The notes below the pieces were generated by a model. It was not told the origin of the DNA and made no database searches. It saw only the letters and a program-made list of their open reading frames with translations. From Moniliella sp. 'wahieum' (lineage: Eukaryota): DNA of 64,000 bases. The stretch is taken from positions 372,001 through 436,000 of the forward strand of contig RSEE01000016.1 of NCBI GenBank assembly GCA_003971905.1. Direction: 5' to 3'. The translations under genes and the position numbers were made by a program. This document shows, one piece after another, positions 8,734 through 26,660 of the stretch. Position 1 is the stretch's first letter, and each line of letters begins with the position of its first letter.

Positions 8734-8814
8734 GGGGTCCGCCCGGGATCGAACGAGGACCACCTCTACGAGTTGAATACCCTAAAGAGGCTGATACCAC
8801 TACACCACGAACCC
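8734..8814 (-). tRNA. tRNA-Pro(AGG) with a ~10-nt intron (possibly with sequencing errors, or a pseudo-tRNA)
   Basis: Minus strand reads GGGTTCG TG GTGTAGTGGTATCAG CCTCT TTAGGG [TATTCAACTCG] T AGAGG TGGT CCTCG TTCGATC CCGGG CGGACCC C, followed by a TTTTT Pol III terminator. It has a 7-bp acceptor stem, a perfect CCTCT/AGAGG anticodon stem, and A-box and B-box motifs. The T-stem has one mismatch and the D-arm looks one base short. Confidence 0.82.
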
Positions 8815-10096
8815 TCATTGCAGGATGCTGGCGCATTGAAGTCAACCGCGTCCAACCTTTGCTATATTTTGGAAGACAATGATATGGGGGGGGAAATTCA
8901 GTGTTTTTATTGCTTATTGAAACACACGGGAGGGATAAGAAGTACCCACTCTCATAGAGTCCTGAACTTTTACTTACTGTCGTGGACCAATGACTCTTCG
9001 CCTGTAAGTGCACGATTGCTGTGGGTGGATAGAATGGACGAACTGGTGTTGGCTAGAGGAAAGATGGGCGATAAAAAAACACGCAAGGGCTATAGCACTC
9101 CGAAATGGGAGGGTGCACGCTGGATCGTTCACGGCGTGGGCCATGCAGAGATGAAGGCGTGGGGATGTTTGAGATTGCCAGGATGACCAAACCGAATGTG
9201 GCGTAAGACTTGCACAGTATGTGTCCCCAGACGCGATAGGAGTGGGGCCCAAAGGAGGAGAGAGACATTCGAAAAAAAAACGGACTTTCGACAGCGTCGT
9301 CGGCTAATTTGAGACCGGAGCATGGCGCCTGTGTGGGGGGCGGGGTCGCCTAAACGATGAACACAGCCCCCCTGCGCTAGGGGGGGCCGCGGATGCAACG
9401 GCGGGGGTGGGTGTCAGTGTCCCCGCCCCACGTCGCTCGCTGAGCAAGCCAATAGGCACGGGGCTTGTGCTGGACGAGCGCCCTGGCTCGCCCCCTCCGT
9501 ACCTCTCGACCAAGGGAGGATTGCGCAAGTGCGAGCCAGCGGGGGCACCAGCACATTGGCTGGGGAGATGCATGCGAGATCGGAGCTTCTGAGATTGAAG
9601 ATCTGAGCGCGCCGGCCATCCGAGCGAACGTCGCTCGTCTCCCTCCACCCCCTTCCACCATCATCATGCATCTCATTAATCAACTTTGCGCCGTCGTACG
9701 GCCCGCGTCACGCGCCAGCGCCCACGCCGAGCGAGGAGTGGCGGAGATGCCCTCCTTCGCTGCTCCCGCGCTACCCCCGGCGGCCCAGAGGTGATTATGT
9801 GCAAAATGGTTAGAGGGGACCCAATTAATCAGCTGTGGGCAAACGGAAGGAAACGCTGCGTGCTCTTAATTTCTTGATCAAGTATATAGCCCCCTCACTT
9901 TCATCCACGGACCATTTTTCTCCCTCCACCCACACCTCCTGTTACCTGTGGCATTTCCTTTGGCCGGTCCAAAGACTTTTTATCGTGCACTCCTCCCTCG
10001 CTTTTGGTCCTGCACCATCACTTCCGTTGCCCACACCTTTCCTTTTTTTACGAACACCCCTTTTCGCTTCTTTCTTTTTCTTTGCCGGCTGCCACA

Positions 10097-16565: not shown

Positions 16566-18766
16566 GGGCGGCGACGAGGGCCTTGACGGCGGTGAAGCTG
16601 GTGGTCTCGACGGGGGAGAAGGAGGCGGCGGGCGTGGGGGAGGGGGGGGCAGCTGCCGCAGGCGCTGGCCTCCAGACGACGCAGGCATCGAGGGAAGGCA
16701 GAGGGCGGCGGCAGCGGCAGAGGCAGCGGCGGGTGGTGGTGGTTGGAGAAGAAACCAGGGCACCCGGCCGGAAACGGCGGCGGGCGGCGGGCGTCTCAGA
16801 TGGGGGATGGGTGATGCGCCTGGCCGGGCACAGGACGGCAGGAGGCCGCTGTGGCGGCGATTGACAATGGGTTGTGGGTGCAGCCGCACTGGCATGCTGC
16901 TTGCTTGTTTACTGGCATCGTGATGCATGGTGTGTGACATATGATGCGTGATGCATGATGCACAGAGTGCCCCCTTGCCTGGGTGCTTGGGTGCCCCTGG
17001 CCGCTGGCCTCCGGCCTCCTTGCAGGCCAGCGTGCTGGCGTGCGGCAGGCAGGCTGCATGCATGCTGCGGTGCCCATGCAGGGCCCATGGGGGTGTTTAC
17101 CACTGCCCCAGCCCAGTCCCCTCTGGGGGGATCGGGCATCCTCAATGCCATCCGCAGTGCCATCCGCAGTGCCATCCGCAGTGCCGTGTATGCCATCGCC
17201 CATCCATCGACCATCTCTCACCTTCTCACATCCGCTCTGACGCGCCAGGGGCTCCTGCCTCCCTCTGGCCTCTGGCCCCAGGCTGGCTCTGGCCCTGATC
17301 CTCATCGGCCAATGGCAAGTCACCCCAATCACCGCTCCCTCCAGCCCCCGTTTGTGCCGCTGGCCAATGGGACAGCGCGGGTGTGCATGGCGGCCTGTCT
17401 GGCCTTGCCGCGCACCGGCAGACACTGGCTACCGACACGCTGAGCCTCAGCGCTGACGCTGACGCAAGATGGATTGATGCATGAAGCTGAAGGATGATGC
17501 AATGCCCAACGCACAATGGCCACTGGTCACCGGTCACCGGTCATTAGGCCACTAGGCCACTTGTTATGCGTGCGGCATGGCATCTTGTCACGTGACGCGG
17601 AACGGGGCCCACGTATAACTGCCTCTGGGCCTGCTTGCTTGCTTCTGGCATGGAGCATCTGCGATCTGGGATCTGGCATCTGGGATCTGGGATCTGAGCG
17701 CCTGAGGACAGTCCCATGGGAGTCCGGCCTGGTCCCAGTCAGAAGGCGCATTCGCGATGGGAGGGTGCAGTGGCTGCGGTGCCAGGCGGTGCCAGCACAG
17801 CGGGGTGGCGCAGGATGCGCGGCCACCGGGCTGCGGACGAGTGCCCCCATGTGATGCATGTGACGCGTGCGGCGTGGTGCTAGAGAATGGTGCTGATGCG
17901 TGATGCGGCACTTAGCGCTTACTTGGGCTGCTCGCTGTGCTGGCCTGTGCTGTGTTCCATGCTACATGTTCTTGTTAGCCGGTGCACAACAGGGCACTGG
18001 CCCTCCTCTTGAAGCGCCCTCCGGCCTCCCCTCGATACACAGAGTGCGGCCGTGCTGGCATTCGGGTGCAGTGCCGGGGCGGCAGCGGGTACAGCCCGGT
18101 ACAGCGCACAGCGCCGAGGGGCTTCGAGCGGCCCATGATGCATGACATGCATGATGCGGGACCAGTGACCCCGCGAGTGGCTGGCGGCTAACGTGTGGCG
18201 CACCAGCGCACACCAGCACTACATTCCCGGCACCCTCGCCCGCAGCCTTATCCCCACCACCACCTTATCTTGCGGCTGCGCGCCGCCCTCGCAGATCTCA
18301 GTTCTCAAAACTCCCACGCGCTGCAAAAGCGGACCAGGTGTGCTTGTCGAGCAGAACAATGAACGAAGTGTTGAGTGTCCCTTTGGCCTACCCGGACGCC
18401 CAACTAACTATACCAACTAACCATATACGCCCAACGGAGATCTCTATGGACGTCCTTTTCCGCGGCTCAGTAGGTCGTAGGTTCGCTCCCTACTCAGTAC
18501 TGAGTCTCAGCCTCGTATTCGGCAATGCCCAGAATACCAACGTGCCTCGGCAGCGGCTCAGCAGCTTCAGCAACACTCAGCGGCAGCGCGTCAGCGCTCA
18601 GCCGAGTAATATAACTGCGCGTCGGAGTGCTGAGTTCAGCCGCGCTCGGCGCTCAGCTGAGCCCCTCTCATATTCTCATCGTCCCTAGGAGTGGCAGCAG
18701 GTGCCCCAGCGCCTACAGAGTTGTCACATGCACCTGTAACATGCCTCTGACACGTAGCAAAGTGCG

Positions 18767-18808
18767 CTAGTAACTAGTAACTAGTAACTAGTAACTAGTA
18801 ACTAGTAA
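18767..18808. repeat. (CTAGTAA)6 heptamer tandem array
   Basis: Six perfect copies are visible. Confidence 0.95.
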
Positions 18809-19309
18809 CACGCCAATTACGGCGTAGCGCGTAATTGCGCGCGTTTCGAAGGAATACCTTTGGGGAACCGGCAGGGATGCGATTTTCTCTTGTGCTGTTG
18901 CTCTCCTGCGTCTTCCCTGCCCGCCGCGCACCTAGTGATCGATGTTCCAGTCACGGAATGATCTATGATCTCGCCGATCGCCCTCCCCCACAATTAAAAG
19001 GTACTCTCAGATCTTACTTTGCCCATTACCGGTTACCCCGGTTACCGCTTACCCCACACCAAGCCACATCAGGTGTGGTATCAGTACGCATATATAGATC
19101 CTCAAGCTTGTGTCCCTCATTCAATCCAACACCCCCGCTCTGAATGATGAATGTTGAACACGCGATGAAGAGGAAACATTGCCGAGGAAAAGAAAGGCAA
19201 AAGCGCAAAACGACTTATCCTCCGCGGAGAGGGGCATGGGACCAAAGCGCATTCGGTGGATCACAGGGATAATGTAGTAGATAGAAGGTTAATACATCAG
19301 TAAGGCAAA

Positions 19310-19822
19310 GAGACTAGTCTCTCGGACACGAGGAAGACCACAGCCACAAGAAAGTATTTCGGAAGAGGATTGGTGTACAGTAGGAGTCATCCACGCTCTT
19401 CTGAAATGCCGGAAGAAAGAGCTGTGCATTATCTGCTGTTGTGGTGCAAGTGGATTCTTACGAGGCGAACCCCACGAACCTGTTTTTGGGACGCACCCAA
19501 GAACCATTTTATTTCCTTTTTGGTTTTGACGATGTGAGAGGATCCTATGCCTCCAAGAGAGCAGGCAAGATGCTTGGGAACTGGAAGTAATTCACTACTG
19601 GGACTCAATGAAGATGGTTCACCGCTCGGATGACTACCATGTTCATCCGTATCCACCCGCGCTTCCTCGGGTATGGGACGGATGGCGGGCACCAGAGGGT
19701 CCTGATCTCCTGGGGACTCCACCGGTTTAACAAGCAACACACGGATGAACGGGTTGGTTTAGATGTAGCGTTTCTTCGTCCAGCCTTTAAGCTCTGTCAA
19801 TGATATGGATGCAGTGTAGAGA
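19310..19822 (+). mobile_element. Degenerate 3' fragment of an RLE-type non-LTR retrotransposon, related to the 22604-23496 element
   Basis: Colinear nucleotide similarity to about 23050-23496, for example GGGACGCACCCAAGAACCATTTT vs GGGACGCACTCAAGAACCTTTT, TGGTTTTGACGA, CGCGCTTCCT.GGGTA.GGGAC, GAGGGTCCTGAT, GGTTTAGA.GTAGCGTT and AAGCTCTGTCAATG. Stops and indels disrupt the frame. The 5' boundary is approximate. Confidence 0.8.
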
Positions 19823-20286
19823 GGTACTGTGAAGTATATAGTAACGACACACTGATGGAGAGAGGTCGTTATATCATCAAAGTGCCATCATAGTATAATG
19901 CACGTCTTCAAGGAGGACTTGACTCTTCATAGGTTCATCCCCAAAGATACCTGAATGGAGTGCTCCCAACATGTGTCGAATCATCCTCTTCTGCGATCAA
20001 GGCCTGACAAATCTGTGTGAAGATGGCAGAATTTGCCCACACACTCGGGGAAAGGGCTGAGTTATGCACCGGCGGGTACCGCGGGAGAGGGCGGGGGCAC
20101 GAGACCAGTGTGCGGCTTAGCCGCCGATTGTGGGCAGCGCGTTTTATTCCCACCTTGTGGCGCAGTTATATATAACCCCCACCCCTGGCTTTTTCCTATA
20201 TGTGGTGTGCTCGGCTTTGCTCTTAGCTCCTGTGCCGCTCGTCGTACCACCTCCACCACCTTTTCCCAACCATCACGACACCCACC

Positions 20287-21510
20287 ATGTCCGCATCCTC
20301 TGCACCCACGCCTCCCGTCCACCAGCCGCCAAAGGTATGTCGCATTTCTTTGCCCACTGTACTGTCCTCAGTTGGGACCAGAGACGCCATCCACACAAGT
20401 ATCCAGCGCATCAGCTTACAAGCCATATTTGCTTTCACTCGGCTGCCATCGTATTCAGCCTTGCCGCTCTACGCCCAGTTCACCGCTGGCGCAATCGCGG
20501 GGGTCACAGAGCTCCTATGTCTCTATCCACTCGGTACGCCCACCATGTCCCCCCGCTCTCCACGACGTCATATGAACTGTATAACTAACGCAGTGTGACG
20601 GTTCTTTGGTACCCTGCGTGCACATTACAGATGTGGTCAAGACCCGTATGCAGCTCCAGACGGCGGGCCAGGGAGCGCAATACAAGAACATGTTTGATTG
20701 CTTTGCCAAGATTATTAAGCAAGAGGGAGCCTCGCGGCTGTATCGGGGTCTCGCGGCCCCCATCCTTCAAGAGGGACCCAAACGGGCCACCAAGTTTGCC
20801 GCCAATGACTTTTGGGGTAAACGGTACAAGGAGTGGTTTGGCGTCTCGCAATTAGGGCAAGGCCTCTCCTTGCTCACGGGCTGCTCAGCAGGCGCGACAG
20901 AGAGTTTTTGTGGTGACGCCATTTGAGCTGGTCAAGATCCGGTTGCAGGACAAGGCGTCGGCCCATTTGTACAAGGGCCCGCTGGATGTTGTCCGCAAGA
21001 CCGTGCGCGCTAGTGGTCCCCTGGGTCTTTACAAGGGCATGGAGTCCACCTTTTGGCGGCATGTAGCCTGGAATGGTGGTTACTTTGGCTGCATCTTCCA
21101 AGTCAAGTCACTCCTGCCCAAGCCAACGGTAAGCTGCCTCTTCCTCCCCCCATCCTGATCCCGTTTCTGTGGCTAACGTTTGCTTTCCCCATTTCTTTTC
21201 GCAGTCCAAGTCGGAGGAACTATCGAACAACCTGATTAGCGGTACCGTCGGTGGCGCCGTGGGCACGGTGCTCACACACCCATGGATGTGGTCAAGAGTC
21301 GGATCCAAGGTGCTGTTGCTGGGTCCAAACCGAAGTACAACTGGACATTCCCCTCCATGGCGCTGATTGCCAAAAAGAGGGCGTGAGTGCGCTATACAAG
21401 GGATTCCTGCCGAAGGTGCTTCGTCTTGCACCCGGAGAGGTGTGCTGCTTCTTGTGGTGGACGTGGTGCTGTCACAGTGGCGCATCATGCTTGGCCCGCC
21501 GTATGTGTAG
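20287..21510 (+). CDS. ODC1: Mitochondrial 2-oxodicarboxylate carrier (SLC25A21-like)
   Basis: QFTAGAIAGVTELLCLYPL/DVVKTRMQLQ; YRGLAAPILQEGPKRATKFAAN; VTPFELVKIRLQ; ESTFWRHVAWNGGYFGCIFQV; LYKGFLPKVLRLAPG. Introns at about 20335-20458, 20534-20630 and 21129-21204. Confidence 0.92.
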
Positions 21511-22313
21511 CGGGTATGGCAAAACGATGACATGAGATGGTCATCACTTGAGCTTCCCGTGTCTCCACAGACCGCCTGTCCCTGCCCAACTCTCCATTGC
21601 TGCCAACATCCTTTTCCAGGGAGAGAGGAACGAAAGGATGGGCTCATCCCTGTGCGCCCCTGGCACCCTTCTTGTCTGCAACTTCTTTGCCTTGCACATG
21701 CACGTGTGTTCAACCCTCGTTTTCTCACTTGTGCATGATGAAAGCCCTTCTGCGTTCTGAACGGTTCTCGCTACTCCTTCTGTAGTGAGCGCAGCTGCTT
21801 TACGACCTGTTGACGACGAAATGACACACTCGCGACACGTACATCGTTGATTCCACTTTAAGCTGTATTGCCCTCTCTTCCAGTATAATCTCTGTCAGTT
21901 ATTAAACGGGTCTCACTTGGGTTGACATCAACATTCATTCGTATGTTCCCACGCGCTACCTGAGGATCAGGTTTGGAAAAGTCCTGGGGCGCCAGAGGTT
22001 CCTGGCCTCAGTACTCTGTGCTGGCGGCTCCACTGTGGTTTCGTAATTGGATTGGCAGGAACAAGCAGCCCACGCCGCCTCAGGAGCCGGTGAGGCGCAG
22101 CGCCCCTCTTTTTGTCCCAAAGTCTTAGCTCTGTAACTGACCTGAATGTAAATAGAGATGCTTGCACCCTGACCGCCTGACCATCAAATCTGAGATCTGA
22201 GATCACAATTGCATCAATTAGACTGGAAACAGTGGGCACTCCGTGTAGTACTACAAGGAGGACCACCGGGCCTACGGCCCGGTCGGCTGGGGCTTCGCCC
22301 CAGCTTGGTGCTG

Positions 22314-22450
22314 CGTCGCCACCTTAGCCACCGTTCCCCCTTCGCCACCTTAGCCACCGTTCCCCCGTCGCCACCTTAGCCACCGTTCCCCCGGCCCCAC
22401 ATCGCCACCTTACCACCTTTCCCCTTCCCCACCTTAGCCACCGTTCCACC
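22314..22450. repeat. ~26-bp minisatellite (TCGCCACCTTAGCCACCGTTCCCCC), three near-perfect plus two degenerate copies
   Basis: Directly visible. Confidence 0.9.
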
Positions 22451-22508
22451 CGTCGCTACCGTTCCACGCTGGAACCCTTCCACGCTGGAGAGGGCAAATA
22501 ATATCACC

Positions 22509-22603
22509 GATTCTCTGGCTGCGGGTGGCTGGGAACGTGGCATCGGTCGGCACGTGCCTATGACGTAAAAGTGTGCAGGATTTCCCAGCCGATCTTATGA
22601 TAT
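22509..22603 (+). repeat. 95-bp direct repeat, copy 1 (putative target-site duplication)
   Basis: GATTCTCTGGCTGC...GATCTTATGATAT, identical to 23497-23591. Confidence 0.95.
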
Positions 22604-23496
22604 GGTCGTCATGTGGTTGAGCACAGCAACCCGCTGAGCCACAACTGGCTCTCCGCTATTCCATCCGTCCCGTACCTCAAGCTCTCTGACCAGCAGGTCC
22701 AGGTTGGTCTCCAGCTCCGCACGCTGTGCCGCACCACGCGCAGCATGTGCAAGTGCGGCGTCATGTCCTCGCTGGAACACATCATGTCCTGCACCCGCAC
22801 CCAGGCCAAGTTTGGTGCGTTGCATGAGGCAGTGCGGGAGCCCATTCTCCAGCTCCTCCGCTCCATCCCCGACACCCACGTCCACAACGAACCTATGGTG
22901 GAGGAAGAGGATGGGACGAGGCGCGGACGGAAGGCACAGCGCACCGATTACCGCGTGATGGGGCCCGGAGCACTGGGAGGAACCGGAATGGAGGTAGACC
23001 ACACGCTGCGCGACACGGGATCGCAGGAGGCGCAGAGCGCGTACCGGCGGGTGGTGCATGAGAGCACTGCGTCGCCTTTGGAACGCCGGGAGAAGGAACT
23101 GCTTCGGCTGCTTGAACAAGCAGAATGCGACAAGAACGCCAAGTACCAGGGACGCACTCAAGAACCTTTTTCCCCCTGGTTTTGACGACGCGAGGATACT
23201 ACGGCACCAAGACGGCGGGCAAGTTGTTTGTGCATTGGAAGGAGTTGGCTACTAAGTCTCAGTGGAAATGGTTCCTCGCTCGTATGTCAACCACGTTCCT
23301 CCGTGTCCACACGCGCTTCCTAGGGTACGGGACCGGATGGCGTGAGCCGGAGGGTCCTGATATCCTGGCGATCCCCTGGTCCCTTAATCTTGGTGGCGCT
23401 TCCAAGTAACCCCCGCAAGATGAACGGTTCGGTTTAGACGTAGCGTTCCCCCTGTCCCAGCCTTAAGCTCTGTCAATGGAATGCACACAATATAGA
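22604..23496 (+). mobile_element. 5'-truncated non-LTR retrotransposon with a restriction-like endonuclease (CRE/Cnl1/MoTeR-like), C-terminal domain plus 3' UTR
   Basis: ORFs 22613..23185 and 23125..23409: WLSAIP...LKLSDQQVQVGLQLRTL; CCHC knuckle CKCGVMSSLEHIMSC; LHEAVRE; NEP...RTDYRV...EVDHTL; ERREKE; KNAKY; PF.PLVLTTRG. This is the motif order of the RLE domain of CRE-clade elements. No RT domain remains. Flanked by a 95-bp direct repeat. Confidence 0.82.
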
Positions 23497-23591
23497 GATT
23501 CTCTGGCTGCGGGTGGCTGGGAACGTGGCATCGGTCGGCACGTGCCTATGACGTAAAAGTGTGCAGGATTTCCCAGCCGATCTTATGATAT
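23497..23591 (+). repeat. 95-bp direct repeat, copy 2 (putative target-site duplication)
   Basis: Identical to 22509-22603. Confidence 0.95.
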
Positions 23592-24045
23592 AGAGATATA
23601 CGCCCCCACAGTGGACGTTGGGAGCGCAAACACCATTTCACATTATGTGTACGCACTTGCCAGGGTGTATGGTGTGGCAGGGTGTGGTGCTTTGGTACCC
23701 GGATACGACGAGGCCGAGCTAATTAATTTGTTGCATTGATCTTTCGATAGTAGTTATTCATCACTCAGGATCTCAGTAGGCACATGTAAAACATCCCACA
23801 GAGCCCCACCGGCCTCTGGCGTTTGGGGGGACATCAGCCCGTTGCGGCCGGGCCATCAGTAGCAGATCAACCCCCAATATGCATCAACCATTGAGATCTG
23901 AAATCCAGCAACAGAAGAAACTTTGTGTCGAAACCCACATGCACAGCTAGATAATATAGGGGGGCGGTCATGACCGGTCCTGTATACCCAAGAGGAGTAG
24001 TGCGGTTGACCCCTCCTCCTCTTTCTCGCCTCTTCTATCAACACG

Positions 24046-26660
24046 ATGCCCCTCGTACCAACATCAGAAATCCTTTCCGAGGGGTTCTTTCCCCTCAAAT
24101 CTCTCTTGGTCACCATGGTGCGCGCCCCGACACCACAGGAGAGAGAACACAACAGCTCATCTTTGCAGCTGCTCCTGGACGAGGCCCAGGCTTTGGGCGA
24201 ACAATGGGCCCGCGACCGCATCACCGCCATCTACACTCCGGACGACGCGGTGGACATTGCCCAAAGGATCGTGTGCCAACGCCGTACCAGATCAGCCCTC
24301 CCCCCCCTGGTCACCACGGCCACACTCAAGGAATGTGGGAAAGGGAGCTCCAGCACGGCAGCTGCCTCTGAGCAAGCAGGCGAAACGGATTGCCAACGTA
24401 CCAATGCAAGGAGCCAAACTCTAGATGAAGTGGCAACCCGGATGGCGATGGCCGTACGACGCTACGTTCTCCCACGGGTTGAGGCCTTGCGAAGTGAGCC
24501 GCCCTCAGCGCACTATTATGGAGTGGGCGCATGTGTAGGCCGCGCACGGATCCCTCGGGATGTGGAGCATGTCGTGGTGGTTTCGCATGCGGTGGCGCTG
24601 CAGGAGCTGGTCGGCGTGCTATTGGGGTTGCACGATGCCCAGCCTCCTGGACGCTATGCCCCATGGCCCGACGCACGCACTAACTTTGTGTATGTGCCGC
24701 CGGGGTGTTTAGGGTGGACTCGGGTCGAGATTTCCGTTCCGGCTCAAATGCCCCCTGGTGCTTTGCCCCCGCCGGCTACCCCAGAGGCGATGGATGCCAT
24801 GCTTGCTGCGCCTCCAAGAGAGCCTTTTCTCCCCCACCACCTCCCCCAGCATGGCCGGACCTACTGCCACCCGCAACATCTTTGTTCGAGTGCTCGAGCA
24901 GAACGTTTCGCTTACCAGCTACCGCGATGATAGCAGTGACAGTGAACCGGAGCAGTCTCTGCTCACCTCTGACGGCCTGTTGCTTTCGCGTCCATCCGCT
25001 ACTCATCCTCATCCCCATCCTCCTCCTCCCGCTTCAGGAGGGTTAGCGTCCAGGCGCTCATTTGGCAGACGGGAAGACGCACCAAATCTGGCCATTGAGC
25101 CACCGCATCGTCCTTCATGCGTTCGCTCCCCGTTACTCCTAGCACCCCATCCACCCTGGAACAGAAGGCACACCCAGTGTAGTGCTCCACCCCGATCCCA
25201 CCGCCCCTTCCATATCGACCTGTACCAACGCCTCAACCCCGAGCCTCGCGTCCTTTCATCCCGGTTCCGTCTCGACCACTCAATCCAAAGCGTACAAGGT
25301 TAGCACGCTCGCCTACGAACTCAGCCGCCCAACCCGACGAGATTCGAGCAGCAGCACTACTTTTCCATCATTTGCTGCGGATTCACCCGACAGTTTGAAC
25401 CAGTACCACGCGCTCCATGACTCATCGCCGGAGATTACCACTGGCGGCCTCGTCCCAAAGCAAGGGGTGTACAGTGCTTCGTCCCCCCTCCTCTCCAATG
25501 AAACGACGATCCTGTTGCCCTTCCCTTCTGCCACCAGGCGCACCAAGACCGATTTTTGTCCCACGGCAGAGCGGGGGGGGAACCAAAACCCTCACTGGAT
25601 GGTGGTTCGTGCCAAAGTTCTCTCCCTCTTTGATGGAGAGAAGGCGGGGCGGGGGACACTGGATGAGCTCCACACCCACCTAACGCAATACATTTCCGAT
25701 ACTGTCGAGCGGCGACCGGCACGGGCAGTGGAGATGGTGTGGTCGGAGGTGATGGGCGTCGTGGCGGGCGGGTGCCAGCGGTTAGCAATGCGATTGACTG
25801 CCTTGCAGGGCCAAGCACTCCTCACAGCTCTGGCCTTTGCCTGGACCGAGTTTTACCGCCACGTGCTCCCCCACGTCGAAGCGATCTTGGTCCCGCTCTC
25901 TACCCACCCTATCCTCACCTCTCTTCATCGGGGCAGCCAGAAGAGAGAGAGAGAGAGGTGGTTCTCCACCATTAATACCGACCTCTTTATGACTGGCTCC
26001 TCTGAGGTTGCATATCCATCCCATGCCAGGACTCAGGACGGGCCACCACTCAATCTACGACACATTTGCCTGGCTCATTTCCGTGACACACTGATTCTCC
26101 CCGGTTTGAGCAGCTGCGTCACCTTCTGCAACGAACCCCAATTGCCTTTGTCACCGAGACGGAGCAGAAGGAGGGGCGGGCGCTGCGACTGAGAACGACG
26201 TGAAAGAACAGCGGTTGATCCAAATGTTGGGGCTGTGTCGGATGGTCCATGCAGCGGACAGTAGGGCCCAAGAGCAGATGCGGGCTTTATTTGCGAGCGC
26301 TGTGGCCGCCCCTGCTCACCTTCCAGCAGCTTGGTCGCCGCCCATTCTGAAGGCCGGCTCGGGCAGTTCGAGCCGCTCGAGGCTGCGGGGCTGGCCCCGC
26401 CCCTGGTTCTTGGCCCCGACACTGCCGCTCCTTCTGAACGGCTGGTGCGGCAGCAGAGGGAGGGAAAAAGTGGCATCAGCACCAGCTCCGCCCTGCTTCG
26501 CACTTTGCCTCGTTCTTTCGCCCGCTCGGCTGCTGACCCCTCTGGCCCGCCGTTCGTTCTCCATCGGCGTAGCCGCCACCCGTCCCTGGGCCTGGCCACG
26601 TCGGTCCCAGATGGGACCCGCCGACCGCGCCTGCGGCCGGGGCGGGGGGGTCCGGACTAG
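24046..26660 (+). CDS. Degenerate histidine-phosphatase (PGM-like) domain followed by an HbrB/Bit61 (PRR5/Protor, TORC2 subunit) domain; one fused gene or two abutting genes
   Basis: N-part: LLVTMVRAP, EAQALGEQWARDRITAIYT, HVVVVSHAVALQELV, WTRVEI, VRVLEQNVS. C-part: HWMVVRAKVLSLFDGE, LQGQALLTALAFAWTEFYRHVLPHVEAILVPL, LNLRHICLAHFRDTLILP, RLIQMLGL. The parts are joined only through frameshifts. Confidence 0.7.

Follow-up and report, generated by a model that had tools for sequence, protein, structure and literature searches.

Introduction

Retrotransposons without long terminal repeats (non-LTR retrotransposons) of the R2 superclade, which comprises R2, R4, NeSL/Utopia, CRE and HERO, carry a restriction-like endonuclease (RLE). 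In the present study, we analyzed 64,000 nucleotides of DNA from Moniliella sp. 'wahieum' (GenBank assembly GCA_003971905.1, contig RSEE01000016.1, positions 372,001 to 436,000 of the forward strand; hereafter the window), which harbor an insert of this kind, termed RLE1, between two copies of a 95-bp direct repeat, termed T. Like the members of the superclade, RLE1 has relatives with only one open reading frame (ORF), a central reverse transcriptase (RT) and a C-terminal CCHC knuckle plus PD-(D/E)xK-type endonuclease, and RLE1 itself is 5'-truncated, with a precise 3' end and no poly(A). It differs from them in its host, a fungus, in its target, which is no rRNA, snRNA, tRNA or spliced-leader gene, and in that the three RLE tails of the locus (RLE1, RLE2 and RLE3) run into three different downstream flanks. 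The R9 element of bdelloid rotifers, whose target-site duplication is reportedly exceptionally long (126 bp), offers a precedent for the 95 bp seen here. For the Utopia families, one report gives precise 3' junctions, variable 5' junctions and duplications of 0 to 20 bp (PMC4640811).

The DNA entered by RLE1 includes a short repeat, made up of a segment that we call the unit, followed by T. Short interspersed elements (SINEs) that share the 3' tail of a long interspersed element (LINE) are non-autonomous partners of non-LTR elements. R2 SIDEs (PMC3414825) are likewise short and non-coding and lie on the same strand as the coding element, with its terminal nucleotides, at a junction which that element uses; in these respects the repeat studied here looks alike. 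It differs from both R2 SIDEs and SINE-LINE pairs in that it shares only 9-10 terminal nucleotides with confidence and that no 5' ribozyme or RNA polymerase III (pol III) head was found in it.

Tx1L non-LTR elements of Xenopus insert into Tx1D DNA transposons (PMC6719617), and therefore the general idea of a 'transposon-targeting transposon' is not new. The likeness to our locus lies in the preferred target, another repeated mobile element. Tx1L differs in that it encodes an AP-type endonuclease (PMC4640811) and in that its target is a DNA transposon, whereas RLE1 carries a restriction-like endonuclease and its target looks retroelement-related. The Helitrons HELPO1 and HELPO2 of Pleurotus ostreatus resemble the short repeat in having a subterminal GC hairpin 7 nt before CTTG and then T, in being non-coding and in lacking terminal inverted repeats; their description gives the HelSearch rule as at least 6 pairs, a loop of 2-4 and 5-8 bp to the end, and has HELPO2 ending in CTTG (PMC4289320). 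The repeat differs from them in that it has no CTRR, that its 5' end lacks support, that there is no known second copy sharing its termini and that no RepHel partner is seen in the window.

Results and Discussion

A truncated R2-like element between two copies of its target

The locus is best explained as a small nest of pieces of R2-like RLE non-LTR retroelements, all on the + strand, in two intergenic regions flanking a mitochondrial-carrier gene (20290-21510, +, between RLE2 and RLE3). The positions of all features are collected in Table 1. RLE1 consists of two reading-frame pieces (22601-23185 and 23116-23409) with a single change of frame, which falls in a T/C run near 23170, a stop at 23409 and an 87-nt 3' untranslated region (UTR) ending in CAATATAGA. 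Since a Pfam scan of the two ORF pieces each of RLE1 and RLE2 gave no match, the domain of RLE1 was assigned via its relatives and its fold. A search of 1.84 billion representative proteins returned 119 relatives of the RLE1 protein, one of which, P0001, is 84% identical; a protein attributed by its source to Tilletia maclaganii is 43% identical and, along with the base composition, points to a basidiomycete host of the smut/bunt type, although it does not pin the host down. Several of these relatives are ~1000 amino acids long and match at their C-terminus, and the RT domain RVT_1 lies upstream of the matched part in seven of the ten relatives scanned (six above the Pfam cutoff). The nearest solved structure to the RT of one relative is R2, the next LINE-1.

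In an alignment of 41 sequences, C66, C68, H76, C80, E113, D150 and K195 (P0001 numbering) are invariant, as is a further H before the E. This C,C,H,C plus H,E,D,K pattern is, we take it, the zinc knuckle together with the PD-(D/E)xK motif of R2-type endonucleases. An AlphaFold (AF2) model of P0001 (pLDDT 86), compared with the PDB, gave R2 proteins as all of the seven best folds (TM 0.37-0.56 on the query), followed by Prp8, Holliday-junction resolvases and restriction enzymes. Compared with longer proteins, P0001 gave no match, and among proteins of similar length it found only itself. RLE1 hence shows the CCHC knuckle and PD-(D/E)xK endonuclease that, behind an RT, define the R2-like RLE class, the RT being seen in the relatives; the window contains truncated tails only and no full-length RLE copy.

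RLE1 begins at P0001 residue 18 and is therefore 5'-truncated. Together with the defined 3' end and the target-site duplication, the latter present for RLE1 only, this truncation is a sign of target-primed reverse transcription. The two copies of T (22509-22603 and 23497-23591) are 100% identical, and their edges are fixed because the outside bases differ at both sides (C/A before, G/A after). As far as sequence can tell, these features demonstrate that RLE1 entered by target-primed reverse transcription, which left a copy short of its 5' part and duplicated 95 bp of the target without a mismatch.

With an insert on the + strand and T duplicated, the first nick can be deduced to lie at 22508|22509 in the bottom strand and the other 95 bp downstream, at the equivalent of 23591|23592, in the top strand. 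The 8 nt found 3' of each nick on the nicked strand, GGTGATAT and AGAGATAT, agree at 6 of 8 positions (binomial P = 0.004, one test at fixed positions), and T is bracketed by the imperfect inverted repeat ATATCACC ... AGAGATAT. Each nick would thus fall just 5' of N-G-N-GATAT on its own strand. Two subunits of the element protein may recognize these half-sites, which are alike, and each cut one of the two strands at a distance of 95 bp, and the GA(T) common to the element end and the target could provide microhomology for priming.

The right edge of T carries a further link to the element. Over both strands of the window (128 kb in total), the 10-mer ATATAGAGAT is confined to two places, 23490 and 23588. 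The first occurrence is composed of the last 7 nt of RLE1 and the first 3 of T, and the second of the last 4 nt of T and the next 6 (AGAGAT). T itself also contains, at 22549-22568, the palindrome GGCACGTGCC (a CACGTG box), with TGACGTAA 3 nt beyond it, ~450 bp (insert removed) before the ATG of the next gene at 24046; these boxes may be promoter elements or part of the repeat. The notion that T is the 5' end of a tandem RLE copy was dropped because no RLE match was found in the DNA right of T.

Table 1. Coordinates of the RLE tails, the duplicated target and the short repeat in the window
Feature	Position	Strand	Description
RLE1	22604-23496 (893 bp)	+	Young 5'-truncated R2-like non-LTR tail; C-terminal zinc knuckle and restriction-like endonuclease
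T, left copy	22509-22603		Holds GGCACGTGCC, TGACGTAA and the near-inverted minisatellite unit GGGAACGTGGC
T, right copy	23497-23591		100% identical to the left copy
ATATAGAGAT at right edge of T	23588-23597	+	Identical to 23490-23499 (3' end of RLE1 and first 3 nt of T)
Unit of short repeat	22253-22508 (256 bp)		Two GC hairpins (22265-22304), a minisatellite (22314-22460) and, at the end, AT-rich sequence ending in GCAAATAATATCACC
Spacer S	22159-22252 (94-96 nt)		From 3' end of RLE3 to hairpin end of repeat; single copy in window
RLE2	19450-19822	+	Old 5'-truncated tail of related RLE element; ends in GTGTAGAGA, then GGTACTG
RLE3	~21904-22158	+	Older, decayed third tail; ends in AAATAGAGA, then TGCTTGCACC; firm over ~22040-22158, weaker upstream

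Two older tails and the question of site specificity

RLE2 is 72.5% identical in DNA to 23149-23496 and is also recovered at the protein level (tblastn with P0001 residues 188-278, E 1.8e-20). RLE3 emerged from a scan of the RLE1 3' UTR against 4966 windows of 150 nt on both strands, with the two known copies excluded. The five best windows all belong to the + strand and fall within 22001-22250; they reach a score of 38, where the 99.9th percentile is 29, and a query of just the last 60 nt reaches 36, where it is 28. With the RLE2 tail as query, the score is 28, under the 99.9th percentile of 29, and RLE3 shows no significant match at the protein level. A three-way alignment of the tails displays blocks and the end in common, with 59% identity between RLE3 and RLE1 over 266 columns.

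All three tails lie on the + strand within 4 kb and end in TAGAGA, with RLE3 ending AAATAGAGAT and RLE2 ending GTGTAGAGAG; the bases after the three tail ends are TTCTCTGG, GGTACTGT and TGCTTGCA, respectively. The signature TAGA|GA is found at four junctions, and in three of them the next base is a thymine. The downstream flanks are not alike: that of RLE2 is unlike T even when transitions are tolerated, and those of RLE1 and RLE3 are unlike each other. The three tails hence do not share one target sequence at their 3' junctions. The sequences around the two older tails are unrelated, and strict site specificity is therefore not demonstrated; because the tails have diverged (59-72% identity), each family may have a target of its own. 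A 'long 3' tail', with both S and T as parts of the RLE element, was dropped since the similarity among the tails ends abruptly at TAGAGA.

Two of the three tails lie in, or less than 100 bp from, one short repeat. The earlier note on this DNA had proposed that the retroelement targets a short repeated element, identified there as a mini-Helitron, and had held that RLE copies at unrelated sequences would speak against it. This is the situation of the two older tails, and the three tails have three different downstream flanks. The targeting part of the proposal is nonetheless retained in part, as the repeat exists in at least two differing forms in a metagenome (described below), one of them rearranged at the very nucleotide of the RLE1 3' junction, and two of the three tails lie in it or within 100 bp; the identification as a Helitron is not retained.

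The short repeat and its metagenomic variants

The features on which the earlier note built are present in the window: the 95-mer duplication with its 893-bp insert, the minisatellite and the twin hairpins. The 26-bp minisatellite spans 22314-22400 with 3.3 copies and 93% matches, and degenerate copies continue to ~22460. The two perfect hairpins (22265-22283 and 22286-22304) have 8-bp stems, 3-nt loops and arms of 88% GC, and stand 2 nt apart; only 11 distinct perfect hairpins of at least 8 bp (loops 3-7) exist in the whole window. For the 96-nt stretch with the hairpins, the fold has z = -3.1, equaled by 2 of 200 shuffles, while the unit plus T as an RNA is not unusually stable (z = -1.7). 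Both the 95-bp repeat and the hairpins are more than chance.

Within T, GGGAACGTGGC (22529-22543) is a near-inverted copy of the minisatellite core GCCACCGTTCCCC (22314-22460). The two pair in the RNA fold, which suggests that T and the unit belong together. A 22-nt palindrome with one mismatch (CTCCGTGTAGT|ACTACAAGGAG, 22239-22260) is centered 3 nt left of the unit edge, with the last 11 nt of S mirroring the first 11 of the unit; it could be a junction footprint or chance.

Searches with Rfam gave no family at E up to 10 in 21500-24000 and none at the gathering score in the whole window, and no tRNA was found, so that the target is no known small-RNA gene and the hairpin region no known ribozyme. 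Two candidates for the ends of a larger element, the 7-nt repeat ACAGTGG (22229, 23608) and a 17-nt inverted repeat (22029 / 23599), were within chance.

Only one study, a food metagenome, matched part of the stretch, with contigs compared at 80% likeness. Its run X1 contains 72 matching contigs, mostly on the RLE1 tail, with four informative forms of the repeat among those listed. In one of them, a joint leads from 22508 back to 22261 with AACGAGGA in between. Since 6 of the 8 letters of AACGAGGA match 22252-22259 (one G dropped), we read it as a head-to-tail joint of two units with edges at 22508 and 22253 +/- 1; both unit edges used here derive from this single joint. The edge at 22508 is the exact nucleotide where, in the window, the 3' end of RLE1 meets T. 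A 164-nt contig follows the window unbroken over 22463-22571 with 2 differences, thereby covering the unit end and the first 63 nt of T, and then continues with 55 letters unlike the window, which indicates that another copy exists elsewhere. In two further contigs, joints leave the minisatellite shorter, by 117 and 128 nt. These differing contigs imply that at least two differing copies of the repeat are present in the sample, alongside the RLE tail. The flanks at 21042-22211 and 23616-25000 are not covered in X1, which cannot be taken as evidence for a multi-copy repeat, and depth is not copy number. In runs X2 and X3, matches are limited to 35 nt at 22627-22665 that are unrelated and contain 4-7 differences.

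A possible companion of the RLE family

The DNA of ~355 bp that RLE1 entered (unit 22253-22508, T and AGAGA) may represent a short repeat that codes for nothing and is linked to the machinery of this retroelement family. The repeat would be a non-autonomous companion of the RLE family on the + strand, ending in the family 3' terminus ATATAGA|GAT. A look-alike junction, AATATCACC|GAT at 22508|22509, would then be reused by the endonuclease and the primer, so that members of the family nest at a fixed nucleotide. We tentatively favor this interpretation of the unit, T and AGAGA as a companion and target element of the RLE family, rather than as a Helitron, while placing it at somewhat below even chances.

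Support for it comes from the junctions. On their best reading, the repeat ends in what would be the RLE terminus and then GAT, as RLE1 and RLE3 do. A full-length copy that nested at 22508|22509 and made no duplication would be expected to leave a joint like that of X1, which hints that one nucleotide (22508) was used twice, once in each of two samples. RLE3, moreover, ends 94-96 nt left of the unit, a distance that equals the length of T. Likeness to the final 14 nt of RLE1 is also seen in the unit, in the 15 nt that precede T; in BLAST the match thereby grows from 95 to 110 nt, at 95.5%. The minisatellite unit resembles the RLE1 3' UTR at 23444-23465, once with a score of 25, which none of 100 and none of 30 shuffles equaled, and once with a score of 29, near the 99.9th percentile.

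Several observations weigh against the companion. Apart from the terminus, the likenesses of the repeat to the RLE 3' UTR are weak and were found post hoc. In a chain test, T compared with RLE1 and RLE3 is equaled by 27 and 32 of 3000 shuffles, respectively, when the terminus is included, and this significance is lost without it: beyond the terminal 9-10 nt, T has no significant likeness to the three tails (535, 1267 and 510 of 3000 shuffles as good). The window holds one copy of the repeat only, with T and the unit each single copy within it, and no target-site duplication was found around RLE2 or RLE3. The unit contains no promoter, ribozyme, pol III or small-RNA head that we could find, and its hairpin end fits the 3' pattern of a Helitron. 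Two coincidences are explained by no model: the spacing of 94-96 nt between RLE3 and the unit equals the length of T, and the 10-mer CAAGGAGGAC occurs only twice in the window, at 19909-19918 (87 nt after the end of RLE2) and at 22254-22263 (96 nt after the end of RLE3, at the unit start), with 8 of 500 flank shuffles aligning as well. Finally, joints in metagenome contigs at 80% likeness can derive from other organisms or repeats, and the X1 joint is one observation, with no survey behind it.

Alternative explanations

Alternatively, the repeat may be of some other class, either an element in decay or a satellite-like unit of ~256 bp whose flank is conserved, and simply be situated in a retroelement-rich spot. 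The shared motifs would then reflect a nick or priming preference (|GAT after an AT-rich run), not descent. The head-to-tail joint of units and the minisatellite length variants in X1 are consistent with such a repeat, as are the lack of significant likeness between T and the RLE tails beyond the terminus and the absence of an RNA family or a promoter-type head. Three RLE tails within 4 kb on one strand would likewise be expected from a preference for the region instead of a sequence. The identity over 10 nt between the RLE1 terminus and the right edge of T and the joint at 22508, however, call for a retroelement link, as the nick preference would otherwise have to be ~10 nt long. We judge this explanation unlikely, though deserving serious weight.

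The Helitron of the earlier note, with its 3' end corrected, would be a non-autonomous minus-strand element ending in hairpin, 7 nt and CTTG|T at 22254, with the RLE element targeting a site ~100 nt from its 5' end. Its hairpin end speaks for it: Helitrons carry a hairpin of 16-20 nt at ~10-12 nt before the 3' end, and the perfect one at 22265-22283, with 8-bp stem, 3-nt loop and a 7-nt spacer to CTTG and T, also fits the HelSearch rule (PMC4289320). A scan of both strands of the window (128 kb) for hairpin, spacer, CTTG and T returned 3 sites, and only this one has a stem of at least 8 bp. The X1 joint sets the unit edge at 22253 +/- 1, adjoining CTTG|T, and an internal minisatellite is present. 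The minus-strand strings that the note had named as termini can be found as well, A|TCTCTATATCATAAG at 23597/23596 and CTTGTAG|T at 22251/22250, and the 95-mer does end 5 nt inside the proposed 5' terminus. These two termini, however, were picked by eye and have no second copy in their support.

At the 3' end, the proposed GTAG is not CTRR; CTTG lies 3 nt further in and matches the HELPO2 variant only, and the X1 variant reads CTCG. At the 5' end, A|TC is indeed present at 23597/23596, but the same 10 nt reverse-complement the RLE 3' terminus: TCTCTATAT is the reverse complement of the 3' terminus common to the RLE tails. The X1 contigs break instead at 22508 and 22571, away from this TC end, and no TC or TG begins at either position. 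On this view, the X1 joint and the RLE1 nick would need to fall together by accident. What lies left of the hairpins is not plain host sequence but the RLE3 tail plus 94-96 nt. No Rep/helicase domain was detected among the 25 longest ORFs of the window, a weak negative, as a partner could lie elsewhere. All in all, the Helitron appears quite improbable, and on present evidence the claim that it serves as a vehicle for the retroelement should not be carried forward. If the repeat is targeted by the retroelement at all, a retroelement-related partner is the more likely target than a rolling-circle element.

Very unlikely, lastly, is that RLE1 entered by chance, with an unusually long duplication, ordinary promoter DNA of the gene downstream that is present once and comprises T and the flank to its right: its CACGTG and TGACGTAA boxes, its single copy in the window together with that of the unit, the unrelated sequence around RLE2 and RLE3 and the lack of another copy in three contig collections or the protein database all agree with it, but the ATATAGAGAT coincidence speaks against chance, and the X1 contig with the unit end and the first 63 nt of T points to a copy elsewhere. 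Of the searches behind this lack, those for RLE copies found no further ones in metagenome contigs (with P0001 and a 29-nt pattern of the 3' UTR), viral contigs (with the 29-nt pattern) or prokaryote contigs (with P0001), viral contigs held no further copy of T (with a 27-nt piece of it), and the protein database gave no match to a reading frame across T and the unit.

Implications of a possible site reuse

Returning to the companion, if an RLE element does nest at one fixed nucleotide of a companion of its own, the novelty would be modest. This reading can be extended to an R2-like family in bunt/smut-type fungi that nicks 95 bp apart at an imperfect inverted ATATC-N-C pair and re-inserts preferentially at one nucleotide of its own hairpin and minisatellite companion, building intergenic nests with a constant, very long duplication; in this full form we consider it improbable. 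If the site is reused, the locus would exemplify a safe-harbor strategy in which a fungal RLE element uses non-coding relatives of itself and sets its nicks at a fixed stagger of 95 bp. Such a fixed stagger would bear on how R2-type proteins place the second-strand cut; according to a review, R2 proteins are said to be under development for targeted insertion. If the site is not reused, the locus amounts to dead retroelement tails in an ordinary cluster.

Neighboring genes and minor features

The window is gene-dense fungal DNA with RIO kinase, RasGEF, HbrB-like protein and M16 peptidase domains, among others, and CTAAC branch sites can be read in the introns of its genes. The mitochondrial-carrier gene contains changes of frame within conserved exon motifs, GATESF / VVTPFELVKIRLQ near 20905 (a T run), near 21285 and near 21375, which reflect either a pseudogene or small indel errors of the assembly. 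RLE1 may owe its own frame shift near 23170, which also lies in a T/C run, to a similar cause.

Some likeness to the RLE2 tail (CGTCCA.CCTTT...CAATGATATGG...CAGTGT) is also found at 8849-8904 (+), scoring 30 where the 99.9th percentile is 29. This stretch lacks the TAGAGA end and may be due to chance or be the remains of a fourth RLE tail in very advanced decay. Just upstream of it, at 8737-8815, lies a tRNA-like string beginning GATCGAACGAGGACCACC, unrecognised by ARAGORN and Rfam. The intergenic region that holds RLE2 also contains a perfect (CTAGTAA)x6 microsatellite at 18767-18809, with GCTCAGC-rich repeats immediately upstream (18460-18690).

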